Shown one piece after another: positions 3,380-50,105 of a DNA stretch of 64,000 bases. Each line of letters begins with the position of its first letter. The first letter of the stretch is position 1. The notes beneath the pieces were generated by a model, which made no database searches, was not told the DNA's origin, and was given only the letters and a program-made list of their open reading frames with translations. Source of the DNA: a virus; the IMG/VR virus record IMGVR_UViG_3300032046_000014, positions 20,304 through 84,303 of that record, one strand, 5' to 3'. A program made the position numbers and the translations under genes.

Positions 3380-3390
3380 GAGAATGAGAA

Positions 3391-3642
3391 GTGTCAGCTC
3401 AAACTCCCCAAGTTGTCAGAGACTCAGCAGGCATCGTAGGCTATTATGTCATTTTGGAAGTTGTTGTTTCCACGGGCGACACGTTTAAGGTGCAACAGCT
3501 TGCAAGTATCAGCGGAGTCGCAGCTCTCAAAATTGCCGACTGGAGCACAGTCACCTGCACATCTGTAGGTAATGTTGTCACAGTCACTCAGGCGGGACTG
3601 AGCGGTGCAAGGATCGTGGCTGTGGTTGGTGGCCAAAAGTGA
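3391..3642 (+). CDS. Small beta-rich putative virion protein
   Basis: 83 aa, V/T/S-rich, coupled to the next gene. Confidence 0.5.
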   Translation: MSAQTPQVVRDSAGIVGYYVILEVVVSTGDTFKVQQLASISGVAALKIADWSTVTCTSVGNVVTVTQAGLSGARIVAVVGGQK

Positions 3643-4391
3643 CCCTTTTCCCCGGAGCAAAGACTCTTTCTTCAAGCGTCTATCTTAACCCGCATTTCCA
3701 ACAAGAAGCATATCAACCAAAATATTGCACTCTCGAGGACTTCGAAGATTATTATCAAGCAGACGTAACTGCAGATACTGTGCCAACTGTTTCGCAGGCC
3801 CTTAAACTACTACAGATCGGGGAAGCAGAAATCGACTCGCATGAATGGGGAAGATACATTCAGGAAGACGAATACTTAGACGGTCAATATGAAATCCTCA
3901 CCTTCCAATGGCGATACGTCGGCTTCTTCGCCCAAGTCTTTTATCCGCACCACACGAACATTCTACGAGTAATCGACTGCGCTTACAACTCCGGAGGAGT
4001 ACCTTCCAGCGACGCAACCTGGACAAAAGTCACCGAGGGCCCAGCAAACAACAGCAGCTTCGTAGTGCTGAGAAAACCCAAACTGAAAACCCAGGTGGGA
4101 AGTGCACTTCTTTTCTATTCAAACGTACCCTATCCAGGTCCGCTGCGGCTCAGACTCACGTACGAATACGGAATGGACATCGACAAAGCTTTACTGCGTG
4201 AATGGGCCGGCAAAAAAGCAGCCAAAGATGCATTGGAAATGCGTTCCGCAGCAGAACATGTTAACATCAATCTGGATGCGGGGCCATGGGCCGCTCTGTA
4301 CAAGGCATATGGAGACCGACTTAAAGAACTAGCAAATGACTTGTTCCCGAAGAAAGTGCGCAAAATTTGGGTCTATCCAAGCACAATGTAA
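3639..4391 (+). CDS. Putative head-tail adaptor (gp6/gp15-like)
   Basis: YCTLEDF N-terminal motif, EAEID, LTYEYG typical of adaptor proteins. Confidence 0.6.
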   Translation: MTLFPGAKTLSSSVYLNPHFQQEAYQPKYCTLEDFEDYYQADVTADTVPTVSQALKLLQIGEAEIDSHEWGRYIQEDEYLDGQYEILTFQWRYVGFFAQVFYPHHTNILRVIDCAYNSGGVPSSDATWTKVTEGPANNSSFVVLRKPKLKTQVGSALLFYSNVPYPGPLRLRLTYEYGMDIDKALLREWAGKKAAKDALEMRSAAEHVNINLDAGPWAALYKAYGDRLKELANDLFPKKVRKIWVYPSTM

Positions 4392-4441
4392 ACGTCCGCT
4401 AGACCATAACACTAAAAACACAAAACTTCTAAAACAGAACT

Positions 4442-4639
4442 ATGCCAATTCCACAGTTAACATGCCCAAAATGCGACAGCTCTCTCGAACAGGAAATCCG
4501 CGTTTCAAAAATGACCCATATCGTCAAAAATCCGAAGAGATCTACCAAAACCAAACGTGGTTACGTCTATCACTGTCTTCGCTGCAAGACATACTACAAA
4601 CCTGCCATGGCTCTAGTCGAGTGTGTCATAGTCGAATGA
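4442..4639 (+). CDS. Zinc-ribbon protein
   Basis: CPKC...CLRC. Confidence 0.6.
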   Translation: MPIPQLTCPKCDSSLEQEIRVSKMTHIVKNPKRSTKTKRGYVYHCLRCKTYYKPAMALVECVIVE

Positions 4640-5235
4640 CTCTGTCGCCAGCTTTGATGATGCTCATACCGATTCTGATTGTTCTCGTAACAGCATACTT
4701 CTTACATGAACTGTATATCATCATCAGAAAACTCTCGGCTTTCCAGCTTTCTAGCAGTTGGATAAAAATAGGCACCATAATCCTAGCATTCGCCTTGGCT
4801 GCAGTCTCAGGTATGATGGTGTATCAAAGCACTTTTGAAATATTCGCCGCGTCGATGCTGCTTGTCCCTTCACAAGGAACAATAAAAACTGCTGGCCTTG
4901 ACTTTGGAGTATACTGGGACATCACAGGAACTCAGCCCGTGACTTCTGTTGATTGGGGCACATTGAGCCCGGGAGACCACAAAACCGTGACTTTCTGGGT
5001 GAAAAATCAGGCTGCAATCCCGATTTATTGTGGTGCACAGCCGGACAGTGGAACATGGCAGCCTGCAACTGCAAGCAATTATCTTACGTTGAGCTGGACC
5101 TTTGGCACAAAGTCGCTGGGAGTCTCTATGCTTCGACGCATCAACATGACTCTTACCGTGAGCCCGACCATTAAGGACATCACAATTTTCAGTTTCACCA
5201 TAATAGTCAACGCGCAAGAAACTCCTCTCAGCTGA
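4636..5235 (+). CDS. Membrane-anchored beta-sandwich surface protein
   Basis: Likely start ATG 4636; two TM helices, then GVYWD...VDWGTLSPG...VKN...LTLSW. Confidence 0.65.
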   Translation: MTLSPALMMLIPILIVLVTAYFLHELYIIIRKLSAFQLSSSWIKIGTIILAFALAAVSGMMVYQSTFEIFAASMLLVPSQGTIKTAGLDFGVYWDITGTQPVTSVDWGTLSPGDHKTVTFWVKNQAAIPIYCGAQPDSGTWQPATASNYLTLSWTFGTKSLGVSMLRRINMTLTVSPTIKDITIFSFTIIVNAQETPLS

Positions 5236-5276
5236 AACCCCACAAATGTTATTTAGTCCCACAGAAGAAGAATAGT

Positions 5277-5675
5277 TTGACCATTATGCCATCGTTATGG
5301 TTCTGGATAGTCCTATGGCTATGCATTCTAGCAATAGTCATAATTGCTATCTGGTTCGGGAAGCATGTCTCTGTGCCGACGATAACCGTAAACACAAACA
5401 AGGACAGTTACGCCAGGAACGAAGTTGTACAAATCACAGGCACGGTAAAGCAGGGGGCCACCCCCCTTCCAGGAAAGACGGTCAAACTGGCAATCCAAGG
5501 GCCGGGACCTGATGCTTGGTCTTTGCCCGACGCGACCACGGATTCCAACGGCTTATTCAGTACAAGCTGGACCGTCCCCGCTGACGCTGCAAACGGAGAT
5601 TATACCCTGAATGTTTCGTGTTTAGGTTCGTCGGCTAGTAAGACCTTCAGACCGGACCAGATGGCAATCAACTAA
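5277..5675 (+). CDS. Membrane-anchored Ig-like domain protein
   Basis: N-terminal TM helix; TNKDSY..NEVVQITG, TTDSNG.F, GDYTLNV. Confidence 0.65.
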   Translation: MTIMPSLWFWIVLWLCILAIVIIAIWFGKHVSVPTITVNTNKDSYARNEVVQITGTVKQGATPLPGKTVKLAIQGPGPDAWSLPDATTDSNGLFSTSWTVPADAANGDYTLNVSCLGSSASKTFRPDQMAIN

Positions 5676-5719
5676 AGGTATAAACTCCATCGAACAAAAA
5701 AAGAAGGGAGTTACTGAGT

Positions 5720-6013
5720 TTACTCTTCTTCTATGTAGGCTTCGATTTTGGCGAGCAGTTTCAGTATGGATTTCGAGAGCATCATTAGTGTCCCGATGAT
5801 GAGGATGAACACTGTCAGGATGATCCAGTTCACCCATGTCATCATGGTAGCGGTTTCAGCTTGCAGTGCAGGCACTACGACGTATGCTCCGTAGAGAAAG
5901 TTAAGTGCCAAGCCGAAGATCGTCCAGAGCAGTAGAATCAGTGTTTTCAAGCCTTTAGGGATTCCTTTTCCATTTTCTGACAAAATGATCCCTGAAGAAC
6001 CATCGTGTAGCAT
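5720..6013 (-). CDS. Small two-TM membrane protein
   Basis: Two hydrophobic helices. Confidence 0.55.
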   Translation of the reverse strand: MLHDGSSGIILSENGKGIPKGLKTLILLLWTIFGLALNFLYGAYVVVPALQAETATMMTWVNWIILTVFILIIGTLMMLSKSILKLLAKIEAYIEEE

Positions 6014-6137
6014 CTATTTAACTTTTGTTGAGCAACCATAGGGTTTTGCGGGAAAACGAAAAGAGTCTATTATTCCGTTCACTGTTCTGAGAAACGCAAA
6101 ACTTATATCATGAATATACGTTTTATCATTTGGTGAA

Positions 6138-6407
6138 ATGATGCTGCTTAACACAGACCTTGTCCGAGAAGTAGTGAATGAACTTATTAAAGAGGATCGA
6201 GAGTTTCATTCAACCGAATTGGCTGAAGCATTGGGCAAAAGGATTGGTATGGTCATAAAAGTAGATACCGCCAGATACTGGGCGAACAAGTTCACTCTTG
6301 ATGGGTTGCTTGAGAGACGCCCGATCAATAAAAAACTTCGAGTCTACCGCAGAAGAAAAGGCATAGATCTTTCTTCATCATTGACAGTTCAGAAACCATC
6401 TAATTAA
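6138..6407 (+). CDS. Winged-helix DNA-binding protein
   Basis: FHSTELAEAL...TARYWANKFTLDGLLER. Confidence 0.6.
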   Translation: MMLLNTDLVREVVNELIKEDREFHSTELAEALGKRIGMVIKVDTARYWANKFTLDGLLERRPINKKLRVYRRRKGIDLSSSLTVQKPSN

Positions 6408-8617
6408 CTATCAGTGTAACCCTTATATAATCCTTTGACGAAATGCAGAGTTCTTGTTCCACCGCCAACCTTTGCGACATCTACATCTCCATCCCATCCG
6501 TCAAGCCTCGCATCTGGAACAGTGCCGCTGCTGAGATCGGATGCGCTCAAATCAACATTATGCACTGCCCTAGCAGAACTGATTATTTCCGTTCCCTGTA
6601 TCTGCAATGAGCTCGCATTCACTACAGCTGAAGAAGCATCTAACGTCGTGATTATTACAAGCGTATTGAATTTGCCGCTATAACCACGTATGTAAGACCA
6701 TCTATAACTATCATTCCCCAATGCTCTAGCATTATCTGTAAGGGGCAACCAATCAGCATTGACGCCGGCAAGAACTTGAAGCTGATTAAATCTTCCTGTT
6801 TCCGCTCTGATCATCGACCAGCGATAATCATCCTTGCCTAAAGAATAGACATTATCCACACCTGGATAGAGAGACTCGAAAACCTTGCCATAAAGGTAGA
6901 GGTCCATCAGATGAAGTTCTTTCCATCTACGCGGGGGCATTCCCAAATCAAAAGTTTCGTCGCTGTCGGGTATGAAATCATTAGCGGAAGCAATAACGGG
7001 CGCGTTAAGAAGGATTTTGCTGTTCGCAGCGAGAAGAAGTTCGCCGTAGAGCCGTGGATTCTGCAGTGTGAGCAGATTTCCCGTGTACATTAGCACTGTC
7101 TGCGGAGTTTCTTCTGTATCCTTGAAAGCTAGATATCCCGAGTTCTCGAAAGTCAGCACTCCTCTAAACGCCATGTCCATTATGTATAAGCGTCGCCAGT
7201 AGGCGTCCTCACGTCCCAGATCATACATATCGCCTGCCAGAGGCACTATATTATAACAGTCGAATTCTGTTCCCCATTTGGCTTGAAACTCCATTCTTGA
7301 ATCAGTTACATTCCAGAGTTTGAAAGCGTCAATTCCTAATGCGATGACTACGGTTTTTCCGCCGGGAGCCGCGTTTCTCAGTCTGAAAATGTCCGTGGTG
7401 GTTGCTGTTATGTCAACAGTATTCGGTGTTCCACGGCTGTTATCGTCAACAATCAGTCGAGGAATGATTTTCAATCCTCTTGACTGGTCGCTCTGGGCTG
7501 GACTGTCAGCTCTCATGAAGGTGAGATTTTGATTATCAATTAGTTCCGTGTATGGTGGTGGCGGATGGCCTGCGCCAACATCAAAGTCAGCATGGCAGTC
7601 TTGGAGAATGTTGCTTTTGCTTTCTTTTCCTGCTGCTTGATACCAGCTGCTTTCTTTTGTGCCGATCCAGCTGGCATCATGCTCGTCGAAAAGGTCTATT
7701 CCTATGAGGTAATGAGTCCATTCAATGTCTAAGAATCTGTGTTGGCAGTTGTATCCGTGGATTCTGATGAAGAACGCATTGTAGGGTGCTTCGTCATTGC
7801 TTTGATTGCCAACTTTGATGGCTGCATTTGTGGTTTTGGAGATTACAATGTCGTCTCCCCAACACCAGTCACACTGACAGTCAATAGCGGTTGCTATCTG
7901 GTATTCTCCTTCTATTCGAATATTTTTTAATTCTTTAGAATTTCCCTTCAAAGAACTATAGGCCAGATTGATTGCGCTTTCGCTTGCATATCCGGTGAGG
8001 GCTATTACTTTCAGTTGAGCAAAGTCACAGTTGCCAACGCGAATGTGGCCTTTGGCTGAGGTATTCGTGTTTTTGATGGCAATATTTTCTATGTCAACAT
8101 TATTCTTTTTTCCGCTTTCAGTCTTTTCTCTTATTGCATAGTCTGTACCGGTGTAGGTGATGTTCGGTATTATGGTTCCGCCGCCGCCTAGCACAGTATT
8201 GCTCAAGATTAGGATGTTGTCCTTCCATAGAATCGGCGCATTGGTTATAATTGGATCGCGTATGAACAGTATCCCATAGGACATCCGATTGATACAAGCA
8301 TTTGCAACTGCAGCTGCATCTGTTCCATCGATTCCGCCTTCATTGTCTGCTCCTCCAAATTCAAGTCGAAGTGCTTCACCATTTATCCCACAGTAATAAC
8401 CGCCTTCTTCGATGAGTAAATAGGATTCTGCAATCATACTATATGTTGTCATATCCCCGATTTTTCCCACTACTTCAGGCCGGTTGGAGTCAGCATCGCT
8501 GAAAATCAGTGCAAGTTGATCGCCTGGAATGAAGTCTGCTTCGCTCTGAACTCTATAATCCGTGTATGGAGCCGTATTGACCTTGCTGCGATAGACTCTT
8601 ACAGTATAGGTTTTCAT
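6404..8617 (-). CDS. Tail fibre/spike
   Basis: Last gene of the tail operon; beta-helix-like middle; four P..D..(Y/F)xLG....RW repeats. Confidence 0.75.
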   Translation of the reverse strand: MKTYTVRVYRSKVNTAPYTDYRVQSEADFIPGDQLALIFSDADSNRPEVVGKIGDMTTYSMIAESYLLIEEGGYYCGINGEALRLEFGGADNEGGIDGTDAAAVANACINRMSYGILFIRDPIITNAPILWKDNILILSNTVLGGGGTIIPNITYTGTDYAIREKTESGKKNNVDIENIAIKNTNTSAKGHIRVGNCDFAQLKVIALTGYASESAINLAYSSLKGNSKELKNIRIEGEYQIATAIDCQCDWCWGDDIVISKTTNAAIKVGNQSNDEAPYNAFFIRIHGYNCQHRFLDIEWTHYLIGIDLFDEHDASWIGTKESSWYQAAGKESKSNILQDCHADFDVGAGHPPPPYTELIDNQNLTFMRADSPAQSDQSRGLKIIPRLIVDDNSRGTPNTVDITATTTDIFRLRNAAPGGKTVVIALGIDAFKLWNVTDSRMEFQAKWGTEFDCYNIVPLAGDMYDLGREDAYWRRLYIMDMAFRGVLTFENSGYLAFKDTEETPQTVLMYTGNLLTLQNPRLYGELLLAANSKILLNAPVIASANDFIPDSDETFDLGMPPRRWKELHLMDLYLYGKVFESLYPGVDNVYSLGKDDYRWSMIRAETGRFNQLQVLAGVNADWLPLTDNARALGNDSYRWSYIRGYSGKFNTLVIITTLDASSAVVNASSLQIQGTEIISSARAVHNVDLSASDLSSGTVPDARLDGWDGDVDVAKVGGGTRTLHFVKGLYKGYTDS

Positions 8618-10437
8618 GGCAGGACCTCTCCTACCGCCGGGAACATTGCTTTTGAATCCTGCAGACTCTGTGTTCCAGTCTGGCCTTTAGCAATGTCTGT
8701 GAAGACTCCGGACAACAGGTTTGGACTTATTACCTGCGTGAACCTTCTCAACACCAGCTCCTGAATGTACCCATCTGGTCCAAGCTTATCAATGACGCCT
8801 GTTAGAAAGTAGGTGCCAGCAAGACCTGTAATACCATCATCTGTGAAGTTGCAGGCACTACCAGGCAGCAACTCCGGATCCCCGATGACTGTAATTCTAA
8901 TTTCATTCTCGGGATAAAGCAGTTTGAACAATGTCGAATAGGAAAGTACATCACAGTAAATTGGACTTTTCAATGTGCCATCTGTGATTATGGTTTGTTT
9001 TCGCCCATATCTTGCTTGGAAGTTTAGATCAAAACAGGGATTAGTTTGTCCTGAAGGAAATAATGTTGGACTGTTCGTGTCCGCAATAGAATATGCGCCC
9101 TCACCATAAACGGCAACTCTGTTCCGCATCGGAACCCCAGTGACTCTAACTTGCAAGCTTACGATGTCGATGCCCCACTTTTTAACTGCTGGCTTAATAA
9201 TTTCGGTGCTGAGCACGGGTCCCCATGCCAGAGGGAAATCAAAGTTGATGCCTCCTCCCGCTGGATTAATTGTTACCTTACCTGTAACCAAATCTACAGC
9301 TGTAGCTTGAACCATGTCTGCATAAGCCGGAACCATTCCAGGCTTATTGGCACAGATGAATAATGTTTCACCAACCCAACTTGAGAATAATATTGGGTCT
9401 TTAACATAGAGATAAGAATTACCGGCAGTTATGGGCTGCACAACTGCGCTGATGCGAATATGATCCTTCCACATCAATGTTGGAGTACCATAATGCTCGC
9501 CAGAATCCATCCAATAATACATTTTGTAGAGGCTGCTGATTTTCTCTATGGCTTCCAGAATCGTGGAATCATTGAATGGTAAATATGATACCCATGGATT
9601 CCAAGCCCAGTACGCCCAGTTTGGTGAGCCCAGCCCAGCTGTGGATAAACCTGCTCTGGTGCCGATGAGATCTTCCATCATGTCTTGCGGGTACATATCT
9701 ATGTAAGTGCCGTCGAAGTTTGTGCCTTCTGCAAGCTTCGCCATATAGTCGCGGCCTGTCACCCGGACCGTGCTGCCTCCGCCTTTGGTGACTGTATAGT
9801 CTACAGTGTCGATTAGGCCCCATAATCTGATGGTGTTTACGCCGTTATAGCCTATGTATATTTTGACGTTGCGGAAATAGTCAAAGACGGGCTGCTCCCA
9901 TGGGCCAACTAAAGCATTTTGTCCGTCTCGGTTGTCGAAGGTCATGTCAAAGGAAGCAGCTTGGCCGCCGAACTGACGTTCTATATTAAGTTCGATGAGG
10001 CCAACTGGTTCGACATACACGCCTATCTCGTTTGCAACAAGCACCTGCCATGATGGTTTCTGGAAGACTGTTGTGTCTGGAAGAAGTAAAAAGTCAATTC
10101 GGAAAGGAATCTGGCGTTCATAATATTTGATTTGTTCAGCTGAGAATTCCAGTTCCGTGATGACGGCATTTTCGCCCCCGTAATATGTTGGCGTTACAAG
10201 CTTGGCAACTGTGCCGTTTACCCATGCTATTTCCAGTTGGTTCATCACGGTCTCAGCGTCTGTGCCTGAGAGAATTCCTTCTAAACTTACTTTGACAAGG
10301 TGCCGCTGCTTGCTTTCCAGCGTCTGTCCAATTCCAAGAATGTTTTTGCGAGCTACAGACCGCATGTACGTTCTAATCATGCTTTCTGGATTAATAGGAA
10401 AAGTGATACTTCCGAATTTTGTTTGAGTCAAGACCAT
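8614..10437 (-). CDS. Baseplate hub/tail tip protein
   Basis: SFDMTFDN, VKIYIGY, GLID, VTGRD, NRVAVYG, GDPELLPG; position downstream of tape measure. Confidence 0.75.
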   Translation of the reverse strand: MVLTQTKFGSITFPINPESMIRTYMRSVARKNILGIGQTLESKQRHLVKVSLEGILSGTDAETVMNQLEIAWVNGTVAKLVTPTYYGGENAVITELEFSAEQIKYYERQIPFRIDFLLLPDTTVFQKPSWQVLVANEIGVYVEPVGLIELNIERQFGGQAASFDMTFDNRDGQNALVGPWEQPVFDYFRNVKIYIGYNGVNTIRLWGLIDTVDYTVTKGGGSTVRVTGRDYMAKLAEGTNFDGTYIDMYPQDMMEDLIGTRAGLSTAGLGSPNWAYWAWNPWVSYLPFNDSTILEAIEKISSLYKMYYWMDSGEHYGTPTLMWKDHIRISAVVQPITAGNSYLYVKDPILFSSWVGETLFICANKPGMVPAYADMVQATAVDLVTGKVTINPAGGGINFDFPLAWGPVLSTEIIKPAVKKWGIDIVSLQVRVTGVPMRNRVAVYGEGAYSIADTNSPTLFPSGQTNPCFDLNFQARYGRKQTIITDGTLKSPIYCDVLSYSTLFKLLYPENEIRITVIGDPELLPGSACNFTDDGITGLAGTYFLTGVIDKLGPDGYIQELVLRRFTQVISPNLLSGVFTDIAKGQTGTQSLQDSKAMFPAVGEVLP

Positions 10438-29289: not shown

Positions 29290-29577
29290 TCAATTCCGCA
29301 GAGATAGGAGCTGCTGGCGCACCGCCTTATTCCATCTGAGCTGCATAACGGCTCTGATGCTGATTTTCTGCATCTTAGAATTGCCACAGATAGGACATTT
29401 GTTTCCCCGACCAGTTTTATGGAAAAGAAATGGTATGGCATGACCCTTTTTTGAACTGTCCTCACAAGTACAGCATTTATAGACTGACAGTTTGTCTTGC
29501 ATTCGCCGACCTAGAAACTCCGTGGTTTTCGGCGTTTCCCTCTCCATTCCTAAAAACTTCTTCAAACTCATCTTCAT
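29290..29577 (-). CDS. Zinc-ribbon protein
   Basis: CCTC...CPICG; coupled to the polyprotein stop. Confidence 0.55.
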   Translation of the reverse strand: MKMSLKKFLGMERETPKTTEFLGRRMQDKLSVYKCCTCEDSSKKGHAIPFLFHKTGRGNKCPICGNSKMQKISIRAVMQLRWNKAVRQQLLSLRN

Positions 29578-32500
29578 CCCTCTATCGGCTTCTTTTCTTC
29601 TCCTGGGCTTTGGACCGGGGCTTCAGTCTCTCCCGCAAGTCTATAGTGGCCATCATCTTCATGTTTAATTGGGTCCATGGGTTGCTGATCGGATGGTCGA
29701 AAGGCAAGCCATCTAGGGCTGCCAGACGCAAGCTTAAGGAGCCGGAAGATCCATCTGCCCCGGAGGAGTTTTCCATAGAAGAAGTATTCGTGGAGATTGT
29801 TTCTTTGGACCCCGTACTTGAACGTGCCTTCTTCCAAAATCTCATAGAAACCACACCTGTTTGTTTCAGCTGCAGATCCTTCTCCGCCGAGAAGCACTGG
29901 TTTACGTAGGCCCTGGACGTCTAGCCAGCCTCTAGGAAACTTTTTGCTGCTCTGTTTAGGAATGGCCGGTTTGGCCGTGGTCATGCCCTTAATGCTGCCG
30001 CTGAAGAATCTCTGAGTTTTCTCCCAAGGATATGTGAGGAAAGTCCAGCCGATCATGCTTTTCGCGTCGCCTGTGTCCTGGCGAGTTTCCCAATGTTCAC
30101 GAAAACCGCCCACGCCCTTCCTTATTTCTTCAGGTTCAGAGTCTCCGAATTCGATGTCTGGCTCTTCAGACTTTGCTAAGTCAGGTTTCAATTGTTCCCA
30201 GACGTAACGTTCAGCCGAGCTTGGGTCTCTTGGTGCAGAAATGGCGTCTCCGGGCGGATTGCCGCCTGCGCTGCTAGGCGGAGAACCTGTGATCTTGATA
30301 TCGCCGGCAGTGTCTGGTTCTATTCTTTTCTCCTTGTTGATCTTGGGTCCATATGGAAAATGATGATGGACGATGAATGTGAAAGCTTTTCCATGCAGCC
30401 ATTCGGCCCCCTTGTAAAACTGGGCGGGATATGGATTGCCTTCCTTGGTCTCGGGCAGCTGAGGTTCAGCAGCTTTTTTCAGTCCTCCAGGCAATACGAA
30501 ACCATCATGTGCAGCGAGCACTGGCTTGTCATATTCTGCTTCCAACGCAATCTTTGACAAAGCTTCCGGCATATCCTCTTGCTTCACGCCCAAGTGTCCA
30601 ACATGGGTAATTATCACTTGGGGCACACCGTTTTTCTTCGCCTGTTTCAGACTATTCAAGATGCTTTGATGCCCATAATCTTCACCATCTTGCTCTCGAA
30701 CGATGTCTCGAGTGAGGCTTGCGCCGTCTATGATCCAGGTTTCCACACCGCCAAGCCACTTGTCACTTATTTCTAGGCAGTCGGGACTATAGAGTACGAT
30801 GCCGTTGATGCGGATGGCGAACGTTTGAACCTTCAAGCTGTGTTTAACTGGGAGCCAGCGGACCTTCACGTTTCCGATTCTGATGGCGTTATAGCTGCTG
30901 TAGAAGTGAAGTTCTCGATGACTCAGTTTCTCAGCGTATTCAGGACGCTGCTCACGTATGTCACGCCATATAGAACGGTGCATGTATATGGGCACGTCTT
31001 CAGACAGAAATTCCAGGCCGTCTATATGGTCCGGATGTGCATGAGTGACGCAGACTGCATCAAGGCGTGTTTGAACCTTCTCCGCGAGCTCCTTGCTTCC
31101 GCAGTCAAGCAGAACGTTCGTACCGCTGTTTTCGAATATGGCGCTTGCATTCAACCTTTTATCGGTGCGACACTGCTCATCATCGCAGTCTTTGCGCGGA
31201 AAAGTTTTCTCTCCGCTTGTACCGAGGAACCGGAGATTCCAGGTTGCAAGCTCAACCGCGTCGGCTGCTGCTCCCCGGCTCGGAGTCCATGTTACAGGAC
31301 CTTGCCGAGTTGATTCTTCGGGCGGCATCTGTTTTTCCGTCGGGTTAACGGGCGGCTTTTCAGACGAAAGAGGCTTTCCCGTTTTCGGGTCTGCTCTATG
31401 GCCAGTCCACGGCGGCCATAACTGTTTCTGCAGAGTGTCTATGCGTTCTTTCAGTTTTTCAGGGTCAGTTGCTGAGGCTCTCACGGTGGCGACCCAACCG
31501 TCTGCTTCTTCATCGACAGAGATTTTGTAGTTGCTGATGCCGATGCTTTCAAACAGGTTTTCTACTTGAGCTTTCCATTGTTGGGCTTTCGCGTATCCTT
31601 CGGGCCCTTTGAAGAAAACATGAGATGTCAATGATGTCTCGTCAGCGCGCATATACTGTAACGGTGTGATTTCATGGAAAGTATTGTCTGCAGGGTCGGG
31701 AACTCTTTCGCCGCCGCCCATTCCAGGAACGCCTATGACCCCACCGGGAGCATAAGTAAATCCGCCATTTGCTTTCGTCAGCTCTTCCTTTTCTAATGGT
31801 GTGTTATGGTTCATTCCGCGTTTTTCAATTTCTCTGGCGATGGCATCGTGAAGAGCTTTGACCGTTGGCTTATCATGCACTAGAGGTTTGCCGCTTTGCA
31901 GTGTGCTCCACCAAGCATGTGTGATTCTGTGATCATCGAGAAGGACGCGGTCATCAATCTTGGCCGGATCATACGTGTCTACGTCCTTGATTTTTGTTAT
32001 GCCAGCTGAACCTTCTGGACCCGTAGAATCTGCGCTGGGCTCGGGCTTCGTTGTCGTAGTCATGATGCCCTGGTCAAGTCTGCCCGGTTCAAACTGCTGT
32101 GAACCGCTGTCAGGATCAGATGCAAACTGTTTCTGAACTTTCTCATCATGCTGTTGAGAATGTTCTTTCCAGTGGACAGGAACTTCACCATCTGTGACTT
32201 TGTAGACTTTGCAAATGTCCTTCTCATGCGTGTAAGCAGCATCGTATTCGGGATCTTCTTTTTCCCAGGGACCGCCGGGCTCTTGTTTCCATTCTTCGAA
32301 GTCTTTGTCGCAGAACCAAGCGCGGCCCATTCCTTCAGCATAGAGTACGTCGACTGTCGGAGGGTCTTCGCAGCGCATGCATTTTTGGCGATTAGCCCTT
32401 TTTTCTATGTAGTCAGAGGCTTTCTTGAACTGGGTGATTTCTTCAGGTGTAGGAAGCGATCGTCCTGGACTAATCGGCGCCAGCATATGCAGATATCCTG

Positions 32501-34643
32501 CTACGTCATCGGCTTTCTGAAGGGTTTGACTGGCCAATTCTTCAGCTGTATCCAAACCGTCTGGCACATTCTTTTCAGGCTGGTACATGGGAACAGCATT
32601 CTGGTATGTGTAGTCGTAACTGTTGTTTTTGACGATTTCCAAGCAGCGAACTCGGAGGATATCCCCCTCAGCTGCTTCTACGCCTGAGACGTGCGTGTGG
32701 CCCATGATAAGCCATTTCTTGCCTTTCATTTCTGCAATACGGTTTGCCGGCAGAGTCTTCGCCTGCGCGTCATTGATGGGGCCTATTGCGCCGAGATAGC
32801 GCCAGCCTTCCTGTTTGCGTTCTTTCTTGACGACGAGGACGTCGATTTCTTTCTGCTTCTTCCATTTTGCCCATCCGAAATTGATGATTCGCTTAGTATT
32901 CCATTGGCTTTGTGCGTCGAAGAGCATGGCGCCTTCGCTGCCCTTCAGGTTGCCCATGCGTTCAGCTGCTTCTGCGGTTTTACTTGGCGGTACAACGGTA
33001 AACTGTTCAGGTTTTATGATGGGCAGATGCACGGTTCCTTTGAATTCTTTTCTGAGCAGTTTCAGTCTGTCTATCATGGGCATGTCCGCGAGGCTTTTTC
33101 CGTCTAACTCGATGATGTCGAAGATCCATATTCGGAGGTTGCGGCCTTCCTCTACCGGGGCCTCCCCATTCAAGTATCCGATTGCTAATGTCCGGTGCAT
33201 CGGCTGACTGTCCGAATACATCATCGCTTGTCCATGGAGGATGAATGATTCGTGGGGCCAATTTTTCAACTCCTCAATAATATGGGGAACACGACTTGTC
33301 TTGTCAAGTCCCCTGCCACTCCAAACTTTTTCTTTGCTCAGCATCATGTCCATGCCGTCAAACTTCTGCTGAACAAGAACATTGGCAAACCTTCTGAGAA
33401 GGGATGGAAGCTTCTTGACGTCATAGTACCGGGTGGCAGGCTTGTTTGCTTTCGGCAATGATGCCTTCGCTATAAGCTGGCCGTCCTCGACAATGAGGTC
33501 GCTTTTGCCGATTTGCTCTGGAGAATGAACGGTTCTGACGGCTTCCTGGTAAGTGGTGGGGTGCATTTCGACTGCTGTTTCTCCGCCGGGCCCTGCAGAT
33601 TCGGGAGTTTGTTTTTCTTCGCTGAACATTTCAGCAGCAGCATGGGCTACTCCGACAACATCTCTCCAGTTGTCGCAGAAGTTCACTCCTAAATCGTCAA
33701 TGTACATGTCGGCAACGGGCTTGCCTAGTATGAGCTCATCATAAGAAATTCCGTTCTTGTCGAGCCATCCTGCAGTGAGCTCATAGTACCGGGGATCTCG
33801 AGCGGTGTAAATGACGATGTTTGCCAGGTCATTAAGGTCTTTCATGCTTTCCTGCGCGAGAGTTTTCGGTTTTGCTTGTGTATAGCATTCTGGAATCGGC
33901 AGGTTAGTGTCGGTGTCGGCTATTGTGCCATCCAGGTCGACGGCGATTGTGAGGTCTTGAGTGTCGCTTTTCCATTCAGGCGTCGGGAAAAAGACTTGTA
34001 CTCCTCGCTGGTACTTGTAGGATTGTGGAGTTTTGAAGCGGTTGAGAATCTTGAGAGTGTAGGCGTAGAGCATGTTGGCGTCGGGCCACCATCGGGTTCG
34101 CTCTTTGTCGCTGATCTTGTGCTGGGGCTGGAGCTTCTTGAACTGCTCGAGCGTAATGGGCTCGATGTCCGTGAATTTGAGAACTCCATAGACATATTCA
34201 TCGTCGGCCCAGTAGAGCGGTTTGTTGAGCATGCCGCTGTAATTGCGGCATTTTACAGTGAGACTTTTTTCGCCGTTCCAGATCATACGTGCATGGGGCG
34301 GGGCAAGATAAACGCTTTTGGCGTTTATTTGTGAAACTGTGCTCTTGAGACTTTGAACAGTGCTTTTGCCCACGGTCACGCCGTCTAGGTCATCGTAAGT
34401 TTTATGGATGAAACCGCGTCTGTCCATTTCTGCTTGGAGCAACCAGTGATAATCAACCAGATCCTCTATCGACCAGCCTGGCACCGCGTCTGGCACATCT
34501 TTTTTTCTGCACCAGAGCGCGTGACATAAGGCATGGTCAAACAGCAACTGTTGATCAACAAGTTCTCCAGGAACCGACATGGCAGTTAGGCTCTCCGGCT
34601 TAAATCCTCCTTGTTTACCCGCTGTTTCGTAGGGTCTACCCAT
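29574..34643 (-). CDS. Multidomain nucleic-acid repair polyprotein (ASCH; HAD phosphatase; ATP-dependent ligase; Zn finger; MBL hydrolase; LigD-like phosphoesterase)
   Basis: PHARMIWNGEK; IAVDLDGT/YTAR/KP.ADMYIDD; QKFDG/WIFDII/EGAM/WAKWK; THAHPDHIDG/GHQS/THVGH; FIVHHH..HWETR..EEGTF..FYGKLLRGRW. Confidence 0.85.
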   Translation of the reverse strand: MGRPYETAGKQGGFKPESLTAMSVPGELVDQQLLFDHALCHALWCRKKDVPDAVPGWSIEDLVDYHWLLQAEMDRRGFIHKTYDDLDGVTVGKSTVQSLKSTVSQINAKSVYLAPPHARMIWNGEKSLTVKCRNYSGMLNKPLYWADDEYVYGVLKFTDIEPITLEQFKKLQPQHKISDKERTRWWPDANMLYAYTLKILNRFKTPQSYKYQRGVQVFFPTPEWKSDTQDLTIAVDLDGTIADTDTNLPIPECYTQAKPKTLAQESMKDLNDLANIVIYTARDPRYYELTAGWLDKNGISYDELILGKPVADMYIDDLGVNFCDNWRDVVGVAHAAAEMFSEEKQTPESAGPGGETAVEMHPTTYQEAVRTVHSPEQIGKSDLIVEDGQLIAKASLPKANKPATRYYDVKKLPSLLRRFANVLVQQKFDGMDMMLSKEKVWSGRGLDKTSRVPHIIEELKNWPHESFILHGQAMMYSDSQPMHRTLAIGYLNGEAPVEEGRNLRIWIFDIIELDGKSLADMPMIDRLKLLRKEFKGTVHLPIIKPEQFTVVPPSKTAEAAERMGNLKGSEGAMLFDAQSQWNTKRIINFGWAKWKKQKEIDVLVVKKERKQEGWRYLGAIGPINDAQAKTLPANRIAEMKGKKWLIMGHTHVSGVEAAEGDILRVRCLEIVKNNSYDYTYQNAVPMYQPEKNVPDGLDTAEELASQTLQKADDVAGYLHMLAPISPGRSLPTPEEITQFKKASDYIEKRANRQKCMRCEDPPTVDVLYAEGMGRAWFCDKDFEEWKQEPGGPWEKEDPEYDAAYTHEKDICKVYKVTDGEVPVHWKEHSQQHDEKVQKQFASDPDSGSQQFEPGRLDQGIMTTTTKPEPSADSTGPEGSAGITKIKDVDTYDPAKIDDRVLLDDHRITHAWWSTLQSGKPLVHDKPTVKALHDAIAREIEKRGMNHNTPLEKEELTKANGGFTYAPGGVIGVPGMGGGERVPDPADNTFHEITPLQYMRADETSLTSHVFFKGPEGYAKAQQWKAQVENLFESIGISNYKISVDEEADGWVATVRASATDPEKLKERIDTLQKQLWPPWTGHRADPKTGKPLSSEKPPVNPTEKQMPPEESTRQGPVTWTPSRGAAADAVELATWNLRFLGTSGEKTFPRKDCDDEQCRTDKRLNASAIFENSGTNVLLDCGSKELAEKVQTRLDAVCVTHAHPDHIDGLEFLSEDVPIYMHRSIWRDIREQRPEYAEKLSHRELHFYSSYNAIRIGNVKVRWLPVKHSLKVQTFAIRINGIVLYSPDCLEISDKWLGGVETWIIDGASLTRDIVREQDGEDYGHQSILNSLKQAKKNGVPQVIITHVGHLGVKQEDMPEALSKIALEAEYDKPVLAAHDGFVLPGGLKKAAEPQLPETKEGNPYPAQFYKGAEWLHGKAFTFIVHHHFPYGPKINKEKRIEPDTAGDIKITGSPPSSAGGNPPGDAISAPRDPSSAERYVWEQLKPDLAKSEEPDIEFGDSEPEEIRKGVGGFREHWETRQDTGDAKSMIGWTFLTYPWEKTQRFFSGSIKGMTTAKPAIPKQSSKKFPRGWLDVQGLRKPVLLGGEGSAAETNRCGFYEILEEGTFKYGVQRNNLHEYFFYGKLLRGRWIFRLLKLASGSPRWLAFRPSDQQPMDPIKHEDDGHYRLAGETEAPVQSPGEEKKPIEG

Positions 34644-43188: not shown

Positions 43189-43262
43189 GGCGGTCTGTGC
43201 GGGAGTTGAACCCGCCTCAGTCGAGTGACAGTCGACCATCCGCACCGGCGGACTTACAAACC
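43188..43262 (-). tRNA. tRNA-Asp(GTC), CCA encoded
   Basis: Cloverleaf; GTCGA-CTGTCAC-TCGAC anticodon arm. Confidence 0.9.
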
Positions 43263-43268
43263 TTGATG

Positions 43269-43339
43269 TGCACCCGCCGGGATTTGAACCCGGCCGTCAG
43301 CGTGGAAAGCTGAGATCCTAGCCACTGGACCACGAGTGC
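43269..43339 (-). tRNA. tRNA-Gly(TCC)
   Basis: Cloverleaf; TCAGC-TTTCCAC-GCTGA; GGTTCAAATCC. Confidence 0.9.
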
Positions 43340-43351
43340 GATGATCCTGTT

Positions 43352-43513
43352 TGGTGCAGAGGACCGGATTTGAACCGGCGCGTCCGCCTTGCGGAAAGAG
43401 GTTTCTCACAGGCTGAACAGTCGTTCCTAACCGTCCTTAGCTTCGAGCTTACGACTTGAGCTTCGAGCTGGGTCTTAAGCCTCTCGCTTTCAGCCATGCT
43501 TGGCTACCCCTGC
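43352..43513 (-). tRNA. tRNA-Leu(TAA) with a 71-nt 37/38 intron (43403-43473), CCA encoded
   Basis: Long variable arm TCCGC/GCGGA; central BHB helix CTTA/TGAG. Confidence 0.88.
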
Positions 43514-43541
43514 ATTAACGGATGGTACTGATAGATCGTAC

Positions 43542-43617
43542 TGGTGGAAGCTGTGGGATTCGAACCCACGGCCTACTGCTTGCAAAGCAGCTGCTCATTC
43601 CGCTGAGCTAAGCCCCC
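43542..43617 (-). tRNA. tRNA-Ala(TGC), CCA encoded
   Basis: Cloverleaf with G3:U70. Confidence 0.92.
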
Positions 43618-46336: not shown

Positions 46337-46389
46337 ACGTCAGGTTCCTCAACACCGAAAACTCTTAAGATTCCACAGAATTATAAACT

Positions 46390-46945
46390 TTTCCCACAAC
46401 ACCAAAACTAAACAGCACAAACAACACAAACAGCACACACCACACATAAACACAATATCATAAAGTCACAAAAGACACAGAGCAGCAAAAATAGAAGAAG
46501 CAACAAAAGACCCTCCGGCACCGCGTCAACGCCGTACACAAAATACACGCCGTCCACAACATCAACACCGTACACAAAACTTGTTACCCACCCCATCACC
46601 TACTAACCGCCCCTTCACCCGCCTACCCATCCTACACCATCACCTACCAAACTCTCCAACACCACCCCAACAGTCCAAAAACAGAACCCACCAACCCACA
46701 AACACAATCCCCCCCACAACATAGCGGGTGGTTTAATTGTTTATTCAATTATTTGTCATTTTGGTTGGTTTGTTGGTTGGTTTGTTTTAGTGTTAACTGT
46801 TGGTTGGTTTTTCTGTTTGGTTCGGTGTTATGGTTGGTTCGGTTCGGGTCTCTTGTTTGGTCACTGCAGAAAATCGTTAGGCTTTTTCTGGAACGGTTTT
46901 CTGTGTATCGTTATGGTGAGTTTAATTGTTTATTATCCTTTTTTG
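46390..46945. other. AC-rich to GT-rich compositional switch element 1 (centre about 46722); candidate origin
   Basis: About 330 nt strongly depleted of G/T, then strongly G/T-rich; coincides with the gene-strand switch. Confidence 0.6.
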
Positions 46946-46959
46946 CGAAAAGTATATAT
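46946..46959 (+). promoter_or_regulatory. BRE-TATA promoter of the rightward early operon
   Basis: CGAAAAGTATATAT. Confidence 0.65.
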
Positions 46960-47022
46960 TCTTCCGTGTGTACCATAGTAGTGTAAAAGAAAAGCACAAC
47001 ACGGAAAAAAGGTGAGAAAAAA

Positions 47023-47118
47023 ATGACAGTAAAAAACTTCATCATTGGAACGCTTCTCATAAGCACAATGGCAGCGATAACCTACTATTTCACCTTTATG
47101 TATAGGTGGTTCGCATGA
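47023..47118 (+). CDS. 31-aa single-TM peptide
   Basis: AGGTGA RBS; MTVKNFIIGTLLISTMAAITYYFTFMYRWFA; ATGA overlap with the next gene. Confidence 0.55.
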   Translation: MTVKNFIIGTLLISTMAAITYYFTFMYRWFA

Positions 47119-47642
47119 ACAGCGATTACCTAAGCGTCAACAAGACAACTGGAAAACCACACTATACATACGGACAGAGCCAACAATGCCATGAACGGGA
47201 GCACGGACTGTTCTTTCATCCGAGAACGGGAGAAAAGATAGTTTGCCTAAGCGAAGCCAACATACGATATAAGACGATCTGGAAGCCAAAAGCGGAACGC
47301 ATGATCGTCAACGGTGACACGGTGATCAAGGTTCCAAGCACCGACAAGGTCAACGGCACAATACCGCAAACAGCTTATCACCGAATAGTAAACGCGATAA
47401 CGGAAACACCAGTCAAGGTATGTAAGACGGGAGACGGTCACACGTTCCTAGAGAATCCCGCAGCATGGCAGCTTAAAGCGGTCAACACTAAGAAGCACTT
47501 TTACGGAGAACGCAAGCATGGATACGCAAGCAAGGCAATAATCGAGGCACACCAACAACCAAGATGGAGACCGCCAGAAAAAGAAGCACCTCATAAGCTG
47601 AGGATAAGCAGCAGCGGTAAACTCAAGCTCTGCAGAATCTAA
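47115..47642 (+). CDS. Basic hypothetical protein
   Basis: ATG 47115 after a GGTGG RBS. Confidence 0.6.
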   Translation: MNSDYLSVNKTTGKPHYTYGQSQQCHEREHGLFFHPRTGEKIVCLSEANIRYKTIWKPKAERMIVNGDTVIKVPSTDKVNGTIPQTAYHRIVNAITETPVKVCKTGDGHTFLENPAAWQLKAVNTKKHFYGERKHGYASKAIIEAHQQPRWRPPEKEAPHKLRISSSGKLKLCRI

Positions 47643-47966
47643 GCGCAGAGTTGGCAAGCGGAACCTAAAAGGTTCATTCCGCAAGCCTCGAGCACTGGGA
47701 ACCTTTGAGAAGCCTAAGTTTCCCTTGGCGAGAAAATCCGCTGAGAAGCCATAGCTTTTCAATCCTAGTTATTCCCTTCGGAGAATAGCTACATACGCAA
47801 GCTCTTTGCGTACGACGGACTGACCCGTAGTGGAATGAAAGTCCGAATCCACGAAATTTTAGTAGTGGATCAAAAAGGGAGAAAATAATAAAGCCCAAGC
47901 CCATGGGCACACATCCAATTAATGACAAAGTTTTCATTAATCCGCAAAGCTCGACAACTTTGCGCT
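47642..47966 (+). ncRNA. Candidate large (325 nt) multi-hairpin ncRNA
   Basis: 12-bp closing helix AGCGCAGAGTTG/CAACTTTGCGCT, inner TCGAGC/GCTCGA, at least eight hairpins. Confidence 0.75.
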
Positions 47967-48043
47967 AAGGTGAAAACTTAAACAAAGATATTATACGATG
48001 AGGTCGCCAGTAGCGCGGCGACTGAGCTAAGCTCCTAACATTC

Positions 48044-48108
48044 TTTTTTCTATTCTCCCTAGCAAGGGATTGACAATGACCGTGAAACTCGGTCGAAAAT
48101 AGAAAAGG
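48044..48108 (+). ncRNA. Type III hammerhead ribozyme, U3-A8 variant; predicted cut after C48055
   Basis: Stem III TTTTCTAT/ATAGAAAA, UUC site, stem I TCCCT/AGGGA, core TTGACAA+T, stem II GACCG/CGGTC, GAAA. Confidence 0.8.
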
Positions 48109-48224
48109 ATGGTGATATAAAGAATGTTAAGCGGAAACCAAGCTCGAAAACTTCGCCTTAGAATACTCGGCGAAGACCAGTACAAGATCCTCATGCAACT
48201 GCATGGACGGAAGGTGAAGACGCA

Positions 48225-48467
48225 ATGAGAATACCAGTAGGCAATAGTTGTTCATGGCTTCCAGCTGAAGCGCTCGCAAAGATCACGAAGCTGCAGCTGT
48301 ACCGTGAAAGATGCATGAACTGGAACGTCAAAGCCTTCATGCCTAAGCAGGAAGCGGCGTTGGTAAGAGTTCCTATGACAGCGAAGCCACAGGAAACATT
48401 AGCGAGCCTGTTTGAACGATTGCAGATTCTCACAGACAAGATGGATGAAGGGCTGCAAAAATGTTGA
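48225..48467 (+). CDS. Hypothetical protein
   Basis: AGGTGA RBS. Confidence 0.55.
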   Translation: MRIPVGNSCSWLPAEALAKITKLQLYRERCMNWNVKAFMPKQEAALVRVPMTAKPQETLASLFERLQILTDKMDEGLQKC

Positions 48468-48868
48468 ATGCAAACCAAGAACTTGCTCGGAACATAGCGC
48501 ACTTACAGGAAGTCTACAATAGCGATTGCGCTTTCTGCAATCGGTACGGTGACTGCCACCCATGTCCCGACCCGGATCTCCTGCAGAAACGAGCCGACGA
48601 ATGGGCAGCAGAATATGTCCTCACCGACATCGTACCATTACTGTTGAAGCAAATCCAAGAGCTCCAGTTTAAAGCTGGCCTCACAGGCAAGACCAAGCTA
48701 GTGCATGTCACAGTGTACATGGATGAAGAAGGCAACATAGTTCTCGGCGGCTACGGATGGCAAGAATTCTACAACTATGAACAGGTTCAGACTCAACGCT
48801 GGCGAGATCTTGAAGCTGAACGGATAAGACGTGCAGTCGAACCCTTGCCAATGCTGGTCGGACCCTAA
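48461..48868 (+). CDS. Hypothetical protein with Cys cluster
   Basis: CAFC....C.PC. Confidence 0.6.
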   Translation: MLNANQELARNIAHLQEVYNSDCAFCNRYGDCHPCPDPDLLQKRADEWAAEYVLTDIVPLLLKQIQELQFKAGLTGKTKLVHVTVYMDEEGNIVLGGYGWQEFYNYEQVQTQRWRDLEAERIRRAVEPLPMLVGP

Positions 48869-48881
48869 CCCTTCCTTTTGT

Positions 48882-48954
48882 GGACCGTAAGTTGAGCAGC
48901 CTCCACGACGGCGCGGTCTGGAACAGGATTATTCACCTGTACTAAGTGCTCAGC
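48882..48954 (+). ncRNA. HDV-like self-cleaving ribozyme 1; predicted cut 5' of G48882
   Basis: P1 GGACCGT/GCGGTCT with G1.U; P2 GTTGAGCA/TGCTCAGC; P3 GCC/GGC; L3 TCCACGAC; P1.1 CC/GG; P4 ACAGG/CCTGT; J4/2 ACTAAG (catalytic C48942). Confidence 0.92.
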
Positions 48955-48987
48955 AGATTACCTGCAGGTGCAGGAGGTGAAACAAAG

Positions 48988-49821
48988 ATGATGAAAAAGC
49001 AAGTTGCGATACTTCTGGTTGCTGCATTGGCAACTGTACTTGTAGCTTCAGCCATAGTCAGCGCATGTGATCCTCCCAGATGTCCACCGGGTCCTCAAGG
49101 ACCAATTGGACCAGCAGGTCCTAAAGGTGACAAAGGAGATGTAGGAGCAACTGGCCCAACAGGACCTCAAGGTGCAACAGGAGCAACAGGACCAGAAGGT
49201 GCAATAGGACCAATGGGTTCTCAAGGACCCAGAGGAATAAGAGGACCGCAAGGTGAAACAGGATCTCAAGGGCTAACAGGACAGGCTGGAATCAACGGAA
49301 CCGATGGAGTTAACGGAACTGACGGAGTCAACGGAACAGATGGAACTGACGGAAAAGACGGTTCCACTTGGTATAATGGAAACGGCACAGCAACTTCAGA
49401 CTTAGGCAAGGATGGAGACTACTACCTACAAACAACAAACGGTGACATCCTCTACAAGATAGAAGGAACTTGGACTTTCCTGATGAACATCAAAGGCTCC
49501 GATGGAAGCAATGGACTCAACGGACTCGATGGACTCAACGGACAAGACGGCATCGATGGGAAAGACGGAATTGATGGTCTCAATGGAACAGATGGAGAGG
49601 ATGGTAAAGATGGACTTGACGGTCTTAACGGACAAGATGGACTCGATGGAGAAGATGGATTCAACGGACAAGACGGCAATGATGGAACAGACGGAATGTC
49701 TGCACAATCTTCAAGCGGATGCGATTGCAAACTATTGATTCTAATGCTCTTCCTGACCATGATAGCAATCTGGATAATCGCAATCAAAATGCTAAGGTGC
49801 AAGTGCAAGCAGCCCAACTAA
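48988..49821 (+). CDS. Collagen-like surface protein (signal peptide, Gly-X-Y repeats, C-terminal TM anchor)
   Basis: GGAGGTGA RBS; two Gly-X-Y blocks; several NGT sequons. Confidence 0.88.
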   Translation: MMKKQVAILLVAALATVLVASAIVSACDPPRCPPGPQGPIGPAGPKGDKGDVGATGPTGPQGATGATGPEGAIGPMGSQGPRGIRGPQGETGSQGLTGQAGINGTDGVNGTDGVNGTDGTDGKDGSTWYNGNGTATSDLGKDGDYYLQTTNGDILYKIEGTWTFLMNIKGSDGSNGLNGLDGLNGQDGIDGKDGIDGLNGTDGEDGKDGLDGLNGQDGLDGEDGFNGQDGNDGTDGMSAQSSSGCDCKLLILMLFLTMIAIWIIAIKMLRCKCKQPN

Positions 49822-49843
49822 AACCAACAGACTCTTTCTTTGT

Positions 49844-49901
49844 GAGTTGCAAGCTGAGACGCCTCCACGTGGCGCAACTTGGAATACGCGAAGAGCTCAG
49901 C
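49844..49901 (+). ncRNA. Minimal (P4-less) HDV-like ribozyme 2; predicted cut 5' of G49844
   Basis: P1 GAGTTGC/GCAACTT with G1.U; P2 GCTGAG/CTCAGC; P3 GCC/GGC; L3 TCCACGT; GG; J4/2 CGAA. Confidence 0.85.
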
Positions 49902-49928
49902 AAAACGATTGGAGTGTGAAAAAAGAAA

Positions 49929-50105
49929 ATGACTGTAGTATTCTTGGTGCAACGACTGGTCCACGGCAGATGGCAAAGCATCGGAGCTGTCTTCTGCAGG
50001 TACGACCGCAAGGCAGCACTACACCGCGCGCATGAAAACCCAATCATGCATGAACTACTGGCTGGCCACTGTGAAGACGTAGAGTTTTTGAGGTGGCTAC
50101 TGTGA
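49929..50105 (+). CDS. 58-aa hypothetical protein
   Basis: GGAGTGTGA RBS; manual translation MTVVFLVQRL... Confidence 0.5.
   Translation: MTVVFLVQRLVHGRWQSIGAVFCRYDRKAALHRAHENPIMHELLAGHCEDVEFLRWLL

Follow-up and report, generated by a model that had tools for sequence, protein, structure and literature searches.

HDV-like ribozymes cut 5' of their first nucleotide, G1, and leave 2',3'-cyclic phosphate and 5'-OH ends. They are abundant and already known from many phages, and the ribozyme described here, named rz1, adds to this known class. Of the phage HDV-like ribozymes, only the tRNA-attached ones have been given a biological role, and hundreds of intergenic ones are of unknown function (PMC10879173). 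In the published set of theta and minimal HDV-like ribozymes of Caudoviricetes, approximately 99% of the members derive from phages whose hosts are gut Bacteroidota and Bacillota (Kienbeck et al., 2024, PMC10879173). For one HDV-like ribozyme of a phage, activity has been demonstrated in vitro, and a C-to-U change abolishes it (PMC13635239); the HDV-like ribozymes of R2 and L1Tc have been proposed in a review to aid translation (PMC6765202). Among ribozymes of another class, hammerheads flank genes in prophage polycistrons (Perreault et al., 2011, PMC3088659); in the haloarchaeal viruses HF1 and HF2, a hammerhead is located 13 nt before an early gene, and a mapped transcript 5' end lies at most 3 nt from its cleavage site (PMC3088659). 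The literature that we searched does not describe HDV-like ribozymes from archaea or archaeal viruses. To our knowledge, reviews give archaea as the domain without HDV-like ribozymes.

In comparison with the published Caudoviricetes set, the virus that encodes rz1 is from sediment and looks archaeal. The window, a stretch of 64,000 nucleotides, comprises positions 20304-84303 of an 84,303-bp IMG/VR virus record. Its head and packaging module is located on the minus strand, and all genes from 47106 onward are on the plus strand; the intergenic region from which the structural module (minus strand) and the early genes (plus strand) diverge (46337-47105) is rich in GTTGGTT-type T/G repeats and may contain promoters or an origin. 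The major capsid protein was compared with 50,697 phage records and matches solely the haloarchaeal Druskaviridae (HCTV-1, HCTV-5, and HVTV-1) and a Methanofastidiosa virus; for the portal protein, the only matches are this Methanofastidiosa virus and HCTV-5. All of these are archaeal tailed viruses. The matches of the large terminase subunit are exclusively bacterial phages, with 24-25% identity, thus the host assignment rests on the capsid, the portal, and a tRNA intron. The latter is found in a tRNA-Leu(UAA)-like gene (43355-43513, minus strand), which is missed by ARAGORN, has an encoded CCA, and is clustered with tRNA-Ala, tRNA-Gly, and a fourth tRNA (43191-43617, minus strand). The anticodon loop of this gene carries a 74-nt insertion. 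A group I intron could not be this short, and the insertion is compatible with a BHB intron of archaea; the MFE fold of the insertion contains no clean BHB, and a manual BHB reading is approximate. The insertion is probably an archaeal-type intron, and the virus appears to rely on archaeal-type intron splicing. Judged by these three features, this tailed virus quite probably has an archaeon as its host. Between the portal and prohead protease genes, the virus also encodes a 1689-aa protein (29574-34643, minus strand) that combines an ATP-dependent ligase domain with a metallo-beta-lactamase domain of the RNase Z/PhnP-like type. Ligase and metallo-beta-lactamase enzymes of such kind can heal and seal 2',3'-cyclic phosphate and 5'-OH ends. 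Phages that carry ribozymes have been reported to be enriched in genes for RNA ligases and CCA-adding enzymes (PMC10879173).

The 73-nt rz1 element (48882-48954, plus strand) is intergenic and in sense orientation relative to both neighboring genes, and no ORF overlaps it except for an unlikely GTG extension of the downstream frame. The upstream ORF135 (48461-48868, plus strand) encodes a near-orphan protein of 135 aa that belongs to no Pfam family and whose homologues form two clusters. Its stop codon (48866-48868) is located 13 nt before the predicted scissile bond U48881/G48882, the same distance as in the initial annotation. The 13-nt spacer (48869-48881, plus strand) is pyrimidine-rich and ends with UUUUGU; by direct reading, a YYUUYYUUUGU-like stretch also precedes the two related ribozymes described below, rz2 and its counterpart in a related contig. 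The plus strand between ORF135 and the downstream gene contains neither a sigma-70-like promoter nor an intrinsic terminator, in a scan for bacterial-type signals. Downstream of rz1, a 33-nt leader (48955-48987, plus strand) with the Shine-Dalgarno sequence GGAGGUG (48973-48979) precedes a gene for a 277-aa collagen-like protein (48988-49821, plus strand; Pfam PF01391, E 1.8e-30) with the likely start codon ATG at 48988. The translated protein begins with a signal peptide/lipobox-like N-terminus, contains two Gly-X-Y blocks and, at its center, a non-collagen domain, and has a hydrophobic helix at its C-terminus. At the other end of this gene, 22 nt past its stop codon, there is a minimal, P4-less HDV-like ribozyme, rz2 (49844-49901, plus strand; predicted cut 49843/49844), which is followed after 27 nt by an ORF of 58 aa (49929-50105, plus strand). 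Thus, rz1 and rz2 bracket the collagen-like gene, and the leader after rz1 resembles that after rz2 (GGAGUGUGAAAAAAG..AUG). Among prokaryotes, the Faecalibacterium prausnitzii ribozyme (RF02682, upstream of glmM) has the same 5'-UTR place before a protein gene, however, this ribozyme is encoded once, in a cellular genome, unlike the pair observed here.

All elements of the double pseudoknot are present in rz1 and can be read directly from its sequence. The 5' strand of P1, GGACCGU (48882-48888), begins with G1 and forms 7 bp with GCGGUCU (48913-48919), including the wobble G1.U (G48882.U48919) at the cleavage site and a U7.G pair at the inner end. After the J1/2 linker AA, the 5' strand of P2, GUUGAGCA (48891-48898), forms 8 bp, one of them U.G, with the 3' strand UGCUCAGC (48947-48954). 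The P3 hairpin (48899-48912) consists of GCC (48899-48901) and GGC (48910-48912), which enclose the 8-nt loop L3, UCCACGAC; this loop contains the equivalents of U20, C21, C22, and G25 and is aligned with HDV UCCUCGCU in the Rfam alignment. P1.1 is a 2-bp CC/GG helix formed by C48903 and C48904 with G48920 and G48921, the two residues that directly follow the P1 3' strand (48913-48921 in total). The P4 hairpin (48923-48940) has 5 bp, ACAGG (48923-48927) with CCUGU (48936-48940), and the 8-nt loop AUUAUUCA. The J4/2 segment A-C-U-A-A-G (48941-48946) contains C48942, the predicted catalytic cytosine (C75 equivalent), and the C48942-U-A-A stretch agrees with the pattern of a cytosine followed by N-R-A. 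Both the direct reading and the descriptor scans find the helix order expected of the HDV fold (P1-P2-P3-P3'-P1'-P1.1-P4-J4/2-P2'). The elements listed in the initial annotation, namely a 7-bp P1 with G1.U, an 8-bp P2, P3 with its loop, P1.1, P4, and the J4/2 CUAAG, are therefore all in place.

With the HDV-like class (HDV genomic and antigenomic, CPEB3, and drz ribozymes; RF00094), rz1 shares the nested double pseudoknot, the 7-bp P1 with G1.U, the 3-bp GC P3, the 2-bp P1.1, the P4 hairpin, and the J4/2 C-N-A-A, and HDV itself has the same 8-nt type of L3, U-C-C-N-C-G-N-N. However, the P4 of rz1 is much shorter, its score with the HDV-specific model is only 22.3 bits, and it is located between protein genes of a dsDNA virus of prokaryotes. 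The folding energy of the nested structure of rz1 is unremarkable (z -1.33), as expected for a pseudoknot, and thus gives no support. Folding of rz1 together with its leader revealed no significant alternative structure. Within 48933-48981, the sequence UUCACCU on the 3' side of P4/L4 is complementary to AGGUGAA in the Shine-Dalgarno region of the collagen-like gene; this pairing is unused in the MFE fold, and UUCACCU is probably a mere anti-SD-like sequence.

A generic HDV descriptor with pair-weighted scoring, the search proposed by the initial annotation, gives rz1 a score of 63, compared with a maximum of 56 when both strands of the complete 84,303-bp genome were shuffled 249 times with dinucleotides preserved. 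Since this scoring was written after the candidate had been seen, the descriptor score is post hoc, and an independent covariance model was therefore sought. The core pattern of rz2 matches more than 117 IMG/VR contigs, many of them directly 3' of tRNA genes, and 51 pass the full check of P1, P2, and J4/2. We built the covariance model R1 from 32 distinct IMG/VR phage ribozymes with the rz2-type core, with the present virus excluded. On both strands of the window (128 kb), R1 has exactly two significant matches, rz2 (49844-49900, 51.3 bits, E 1e-10), which is the best, and rz1 (48882-48953, full length, 33.5 bits, E 3e-6); the next match, which is not a ribozyme, scores 8.5 bits. The Rfam scan of the window at gathering thresholds detected tRNAs only. 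Below these curated thresholds, RF00094 aligns end to end with rz1 at its 22.3 bits (gathering score 50) and RF02682 aligns with the full length of rz2 at 21.5 bits (gathering score 44). Each of the Rfam HDV models has a narrow target: HDV, CPEB3, F. prausnitzii, or a single drz family. In the alignment of 46 family sequences, P1 and P3 are 99.8% paired and the covariation score is 0.768 compared with 0.175 in shuffles, none of the 500 shuffles being as high; the G1.U pair is present in 43 of 45 distinct sequences. The covariance model and the covariation support the assignment of rz1 to an HDV-like ribozyme family, and rz1 is quite probably a genuine, cleavage-competent ribozyme.

The comparison between the two ribozymes of the window points in the same direction. 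In rz2, P1 is formed by GAGUUGC and GCAACUU and P2 by GCUGAG and CUCAGC, with L3 UCCACGU and J4/2 CGAA. The P1 helices of rz1 and rz2 differ at pairs 2, 3, 4, 5, and 7, and pairing is kept at all five; four of these pairs are changed on both sides, and one is a change from U.G to C-G. In contrast to these differences, the P2 strands, the core, the pyrimidine-rich stretch of about 12 nt located 5' of the cut, and the Shine-Dalgarno leader are similar in both copies. Among four related copies (rz1, rz2, and those in the contigs L002 and L003 described below), the J4/2 C-N-A-A is kept in every one, whereas P4 varies freely, being of 5 bp, enlarged, absent, or of 10 bp. The L003 ribozyme has the same L3 as rz1 in combination with an entirely different 8-bp P2 and a 10-bp P4. 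Changes in P1 and P2 with pairing kept are the pattern expected of a constrained RNA fold.

A related contig, L002 (IMGVR_UViG_3300035179_000773, also recorded as L004), is about 89% identical to the present virus and has no collagen-like gene at this place. Its alignment covers the window positions 46667-48648 with 89% identity and 48642-48941 with 86% identity, and then jumps to 49891-50027 with 95% identity; thus, the window segment 48942-49890 is absent from L002, and the breakpoint is located in J4/2 and the shared P2 3' strand. Instead of two ribozymes, L002 has a single chimeric one: as far as P4, it resembles rz1, and from J4/2 on, it resembles rz2. This ribozyme is preceded by an ORF135 homologue and followed by a homologue of the ORF 49929-50105. 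The simplest reading of this arrangement is recombination between two ribozyme copies in the shared J4/2-P2 segment, as either a loss or a gain. The initial annotation placed the ribozyme immediately upstream of the collagen gene, which is correct as a position in the window, but does not extend to a conserved link, as L002 retains a ribozyme without that gene. In addition, 30 other viral contigs with matches to collagen (Gly-X-Y) repeats have no such ribozyme, and these two observations together tie the ribozyme to the junction rather than to collagen genes. A search of sequencing runs for the sequence listed no RNA run; four DNA runs yielded neither a contig across rz1 in the divergent relative nor a joint that skips the cassette, an outcome without information value. 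The AAA ATPase used as a query retrieved no related viral loci.

The L002 ribozyme has a C.A mismatch at pair 4 of P1, has lost the terminal P2 pair, and scores 27.1 bits with R1, suggesting that the site may tolerate decay or that the L002 copy may be impaired. This mismatch would suit an alternative in which rz1 is a ribozyme-derived but catalytically dead 5'-UTR element that acts, for example, in translation or protein binding and does not cut; the HDV-like folds of R2 and L1Tc have likewise been proposed to help translation initiation (PMC6765202). We consider a dead leader improbable, however, as the determinants of rz1 (the G1.U pair, C48942, P1.1, and the G25 equivalent) are all intact, and as the compensatory changes keep P1 closed between the copies, P1 being the helix that matters for positioning of the scissile bond. 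The indel in L002 could also be read as a sign that rz1 and rz2 act mainly as DNA direct repeats for the gain and loss of the collagen cassette, with an incidental RNA fold: the segment missing from L002 runs precisely from a point in rz1 to its equivalent in rz2, and the P2 strands, core, and Shine-Dalgarno leader are common to both copies. Yet P1 differs at five of its seven pairs with pairing kept, which argues for selection on RNA structure and not on DNA identity, and RNA-level covariation is clear across the 46 sequences of the fold family. Recombination between the repeats would be a consequence of the duplication and no alternative to catalysis, and a role as DNA repeats with an incidental fold is thus very unlikely.

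The closest sequence relatives of rz1 are found directly 3' of tRNA genes in L003, L009, L017, and L074. L003 (IMGVR_UViG_3300014204_013734, 381 kb) is a very large viral or proviral record in which the segments 317-450 and 1632-1785 of a tRNA array contain HDV-like ribozymes directly after tRNA-Met and tRNA-Ala, respectively; in the second case, the tRNA occupies 1632-1704 and the ribozyme begins at 1705, has the same 8-nt L3 as rz1, and contains an A.C mismatch in P1. The P3/L3 core of rz1 is shared by L003 and L260. A metagenome scan gave 109 matches, among which L260 is the sole new convincing P4-bearing example, and L316 proved to be L003. A scan of 185,579 species genomes for the rz1-type core gave 92 matches, nearly all of them in high-GC bacteria with P1/P2 pairing that failed or barely passed; none of these matches is archaeal, and the species genomes thus provide no clue to the host. 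In HCTV-1, HCTV-5, HVTV-1, and Methanofastidiosa vir519, the four archaeal virus genomes that are nearest among those known, R1 had no match, and the same model matched other records.

The theta and minimal HDV-like ribozymes of Caudoviricetes (Kienbeck et al., 2024, PMC10879173) belong to the same sequence family as rz1 and rz2, share the core GCC-UCCACG-GGC with them, and yield a covariance model that detects both. Compared with the theta ribozymes, rz1 is distinguished by its complete P4 (five base pairs closed by an 8-nt loop), by its L3 of 8 nt, and by its position after a protein ORF, whereas rz2 is P4-less like the minimal members. The theta type is defined by a cleavage site within 5 nt on either side of a tRNA 3' end; tRNA scans detected no tRNA near 48881, and a protein ORF ends at 48868 instead. 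These features bear on the possibility that rz1 is a displaced theta-type ribozyme with tRNA 3'-end processing as its real job. The tRNA-then-ribozyme order in L003, L009, L017, and L074 is the one described for the theta ribozymes (PMC10879173), but rz1 has no upstream tRNA, its place being taken by the conserved protein ORF at 48461-48868; the tRNA cluster of the virus itself (43191-43617, minus strand) is free of ribozymes according to R1; and the full P4 is unlike minimal theta ribozymes. A displaced theta ribozyme is therefore hardly credible. A chance match to a permissive motif has a negligible probability: loose descriptors do give other weak matches in the genome, but this explanation is refuted by the score of rz1 above all 249 shuffles, the independent covariance model E of 3e-6, conservation of the site in L002, and a paralogue with compensatory changes.

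Upstream of ORF135, the segment 48044-48108 (plus strand) resembles a type III hammerhead, with a three-way junction, a variant core (UUGACAA instead of CUGANGA), and one additional U ahead of stem II. The z value of its three-way-junction fold is -3.28, and none of 200 shuffles folds as well; between the window and L002, the segment has one substitution, in loop 1, in a surrounding region of 89% identity. The Rfam hammerhead models gave no match to this segment at E up to 10.

The sequences studied here show the fold, family membership, covariation, paired arrangement, and cassette indel; cleavage by rz1, co-transcription of the flanking genes, and an effect on expression are inferred. The main role of rz1 would rather probably be the co-transcriptional cutting of a polycistronic early transcript, that is, mRNA punctuation. 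Under the assumption that ORF135 and the collagen-like gene are co-transcribed, transcription through their junction would allow the RNA to fold into the nested double pseudoknot, in which C48942 would serve as the general acid, Mg2+ would be bound at the G1.U wobble, and the 2'-OH of U48881 would attack its own 3' phosphate. The upstream ORF135 RNA would then end in a 2',3'-cyclic phosphate 13 nt past its stop codon, and the downstream RNA would begin with a 5'-OH on G48882 and carry the folded ribozyme as a compact, cap-like 5' structure, with the Shine-Dalgarno sequence and the start codon about 30 nt behind this head. Retention of the ribozyme as the 5' leader of the downstream mRNA, as claimed initially, would follow from the chemistry of the class. 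A second cut by rz2, located 22 nt past the collagen stop codon, would free an RNA of about 962 nt (48882-49843) with the collagen-like gene alone, and would uncouple its stability and translation from those of its neighbors. The combination of ribozyme and Shine-Dalgarno leader would be a repeated module, and recombination between its copies would add or remove the intervening gene; it looks like a unit that would provide mRNAs with a structured 5'-OH head of uniform type, placed approximately 30 nt upstream of the start codon.

This predicted arrangement has parallels in other systems. Similarly to rz1 and rz2, the hammerheads of prophages and of HF1/HF2 are intergenic in viral early operons, are located a few nt before start codons, and sometimes bracket single genes, and the HF1/HF2 example provides a precedent from archaeal tailed viruses. 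However, the hammerhead is a different class with a different cleavage geometry and cuts within itself, whereas an HDV-like ribozyme stays wholly on the downstream product. The 5'-end HDV-like ribozymes of R2 and L1Tc (PMC6765202) are comparable in freeing a gene-sized RNA from a longer co-transcript and staying as its structured 5' end; these are eukaryotic retroelements, whereas a reverse transcriptase or mobility gene is absent from the present locus.

A striking parallel for the module itself was met in a bacterial phage contig, L059 (IMGVR_UViG_3300048599_000246), which contains at least five co-oriented HDV-like ribozymes within 2558-10331 (plus strand), mostly with the P1 strand GCCCCGC. 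At least three of them are followed by a conserved Shine-Dalgarno leader, GGAGCGGAAAA, and an ATG within approximately 30 nt; in the copy at 5655, the ATG abuts the ribozyme, and a Shine-Dalgarno-like stretch follows the ATG. This region looks like a ribozyme-punctuated operon, with ribozymes preceding an N6-methylase-like gene and an AAA ATPase gene, among others; the ATPase resembles that of a Tunturiibacter phage. Thus, L059 parallels the window in that the module of ribozyme and Shine-Dalgarno leader recurs in an unrelated bacterial phage.

In archaea, the tRNA-splicing ligase RtcB joins 5'-OH and 2',3'-cyclic phosphate ends. Since the ends that paired ribozymes would leave on an RNA (5'-OH and 2',3'-cyclic phosphate) are RtcB substrates, and since the virus also seems to depend on intron splicing of the archaeal type, the mRNA of the collagen-like gene could conceivably be circularized in the host, with HDV-like ribozymes and their Shine-Dalgarno leaders as portable expression modules of archaeal and bacterial tailed viruses; we consider this combined proposal improbable. 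The value of the locus lies in the likely archaeal-virus host, the gene-bracketing pair of ribozymes, and the natural cassette indel. It provides a compact test case, in which a single dispensable gene lies between two ribozymes of the same family, this gene is missing from a natural variant with one chimeric ribozyme, and the module recurs in an unrelated bacterial phage. If the proposal of portable modules were true, genes would be plugged into viral operons and swapped by recombination between ribozymes.
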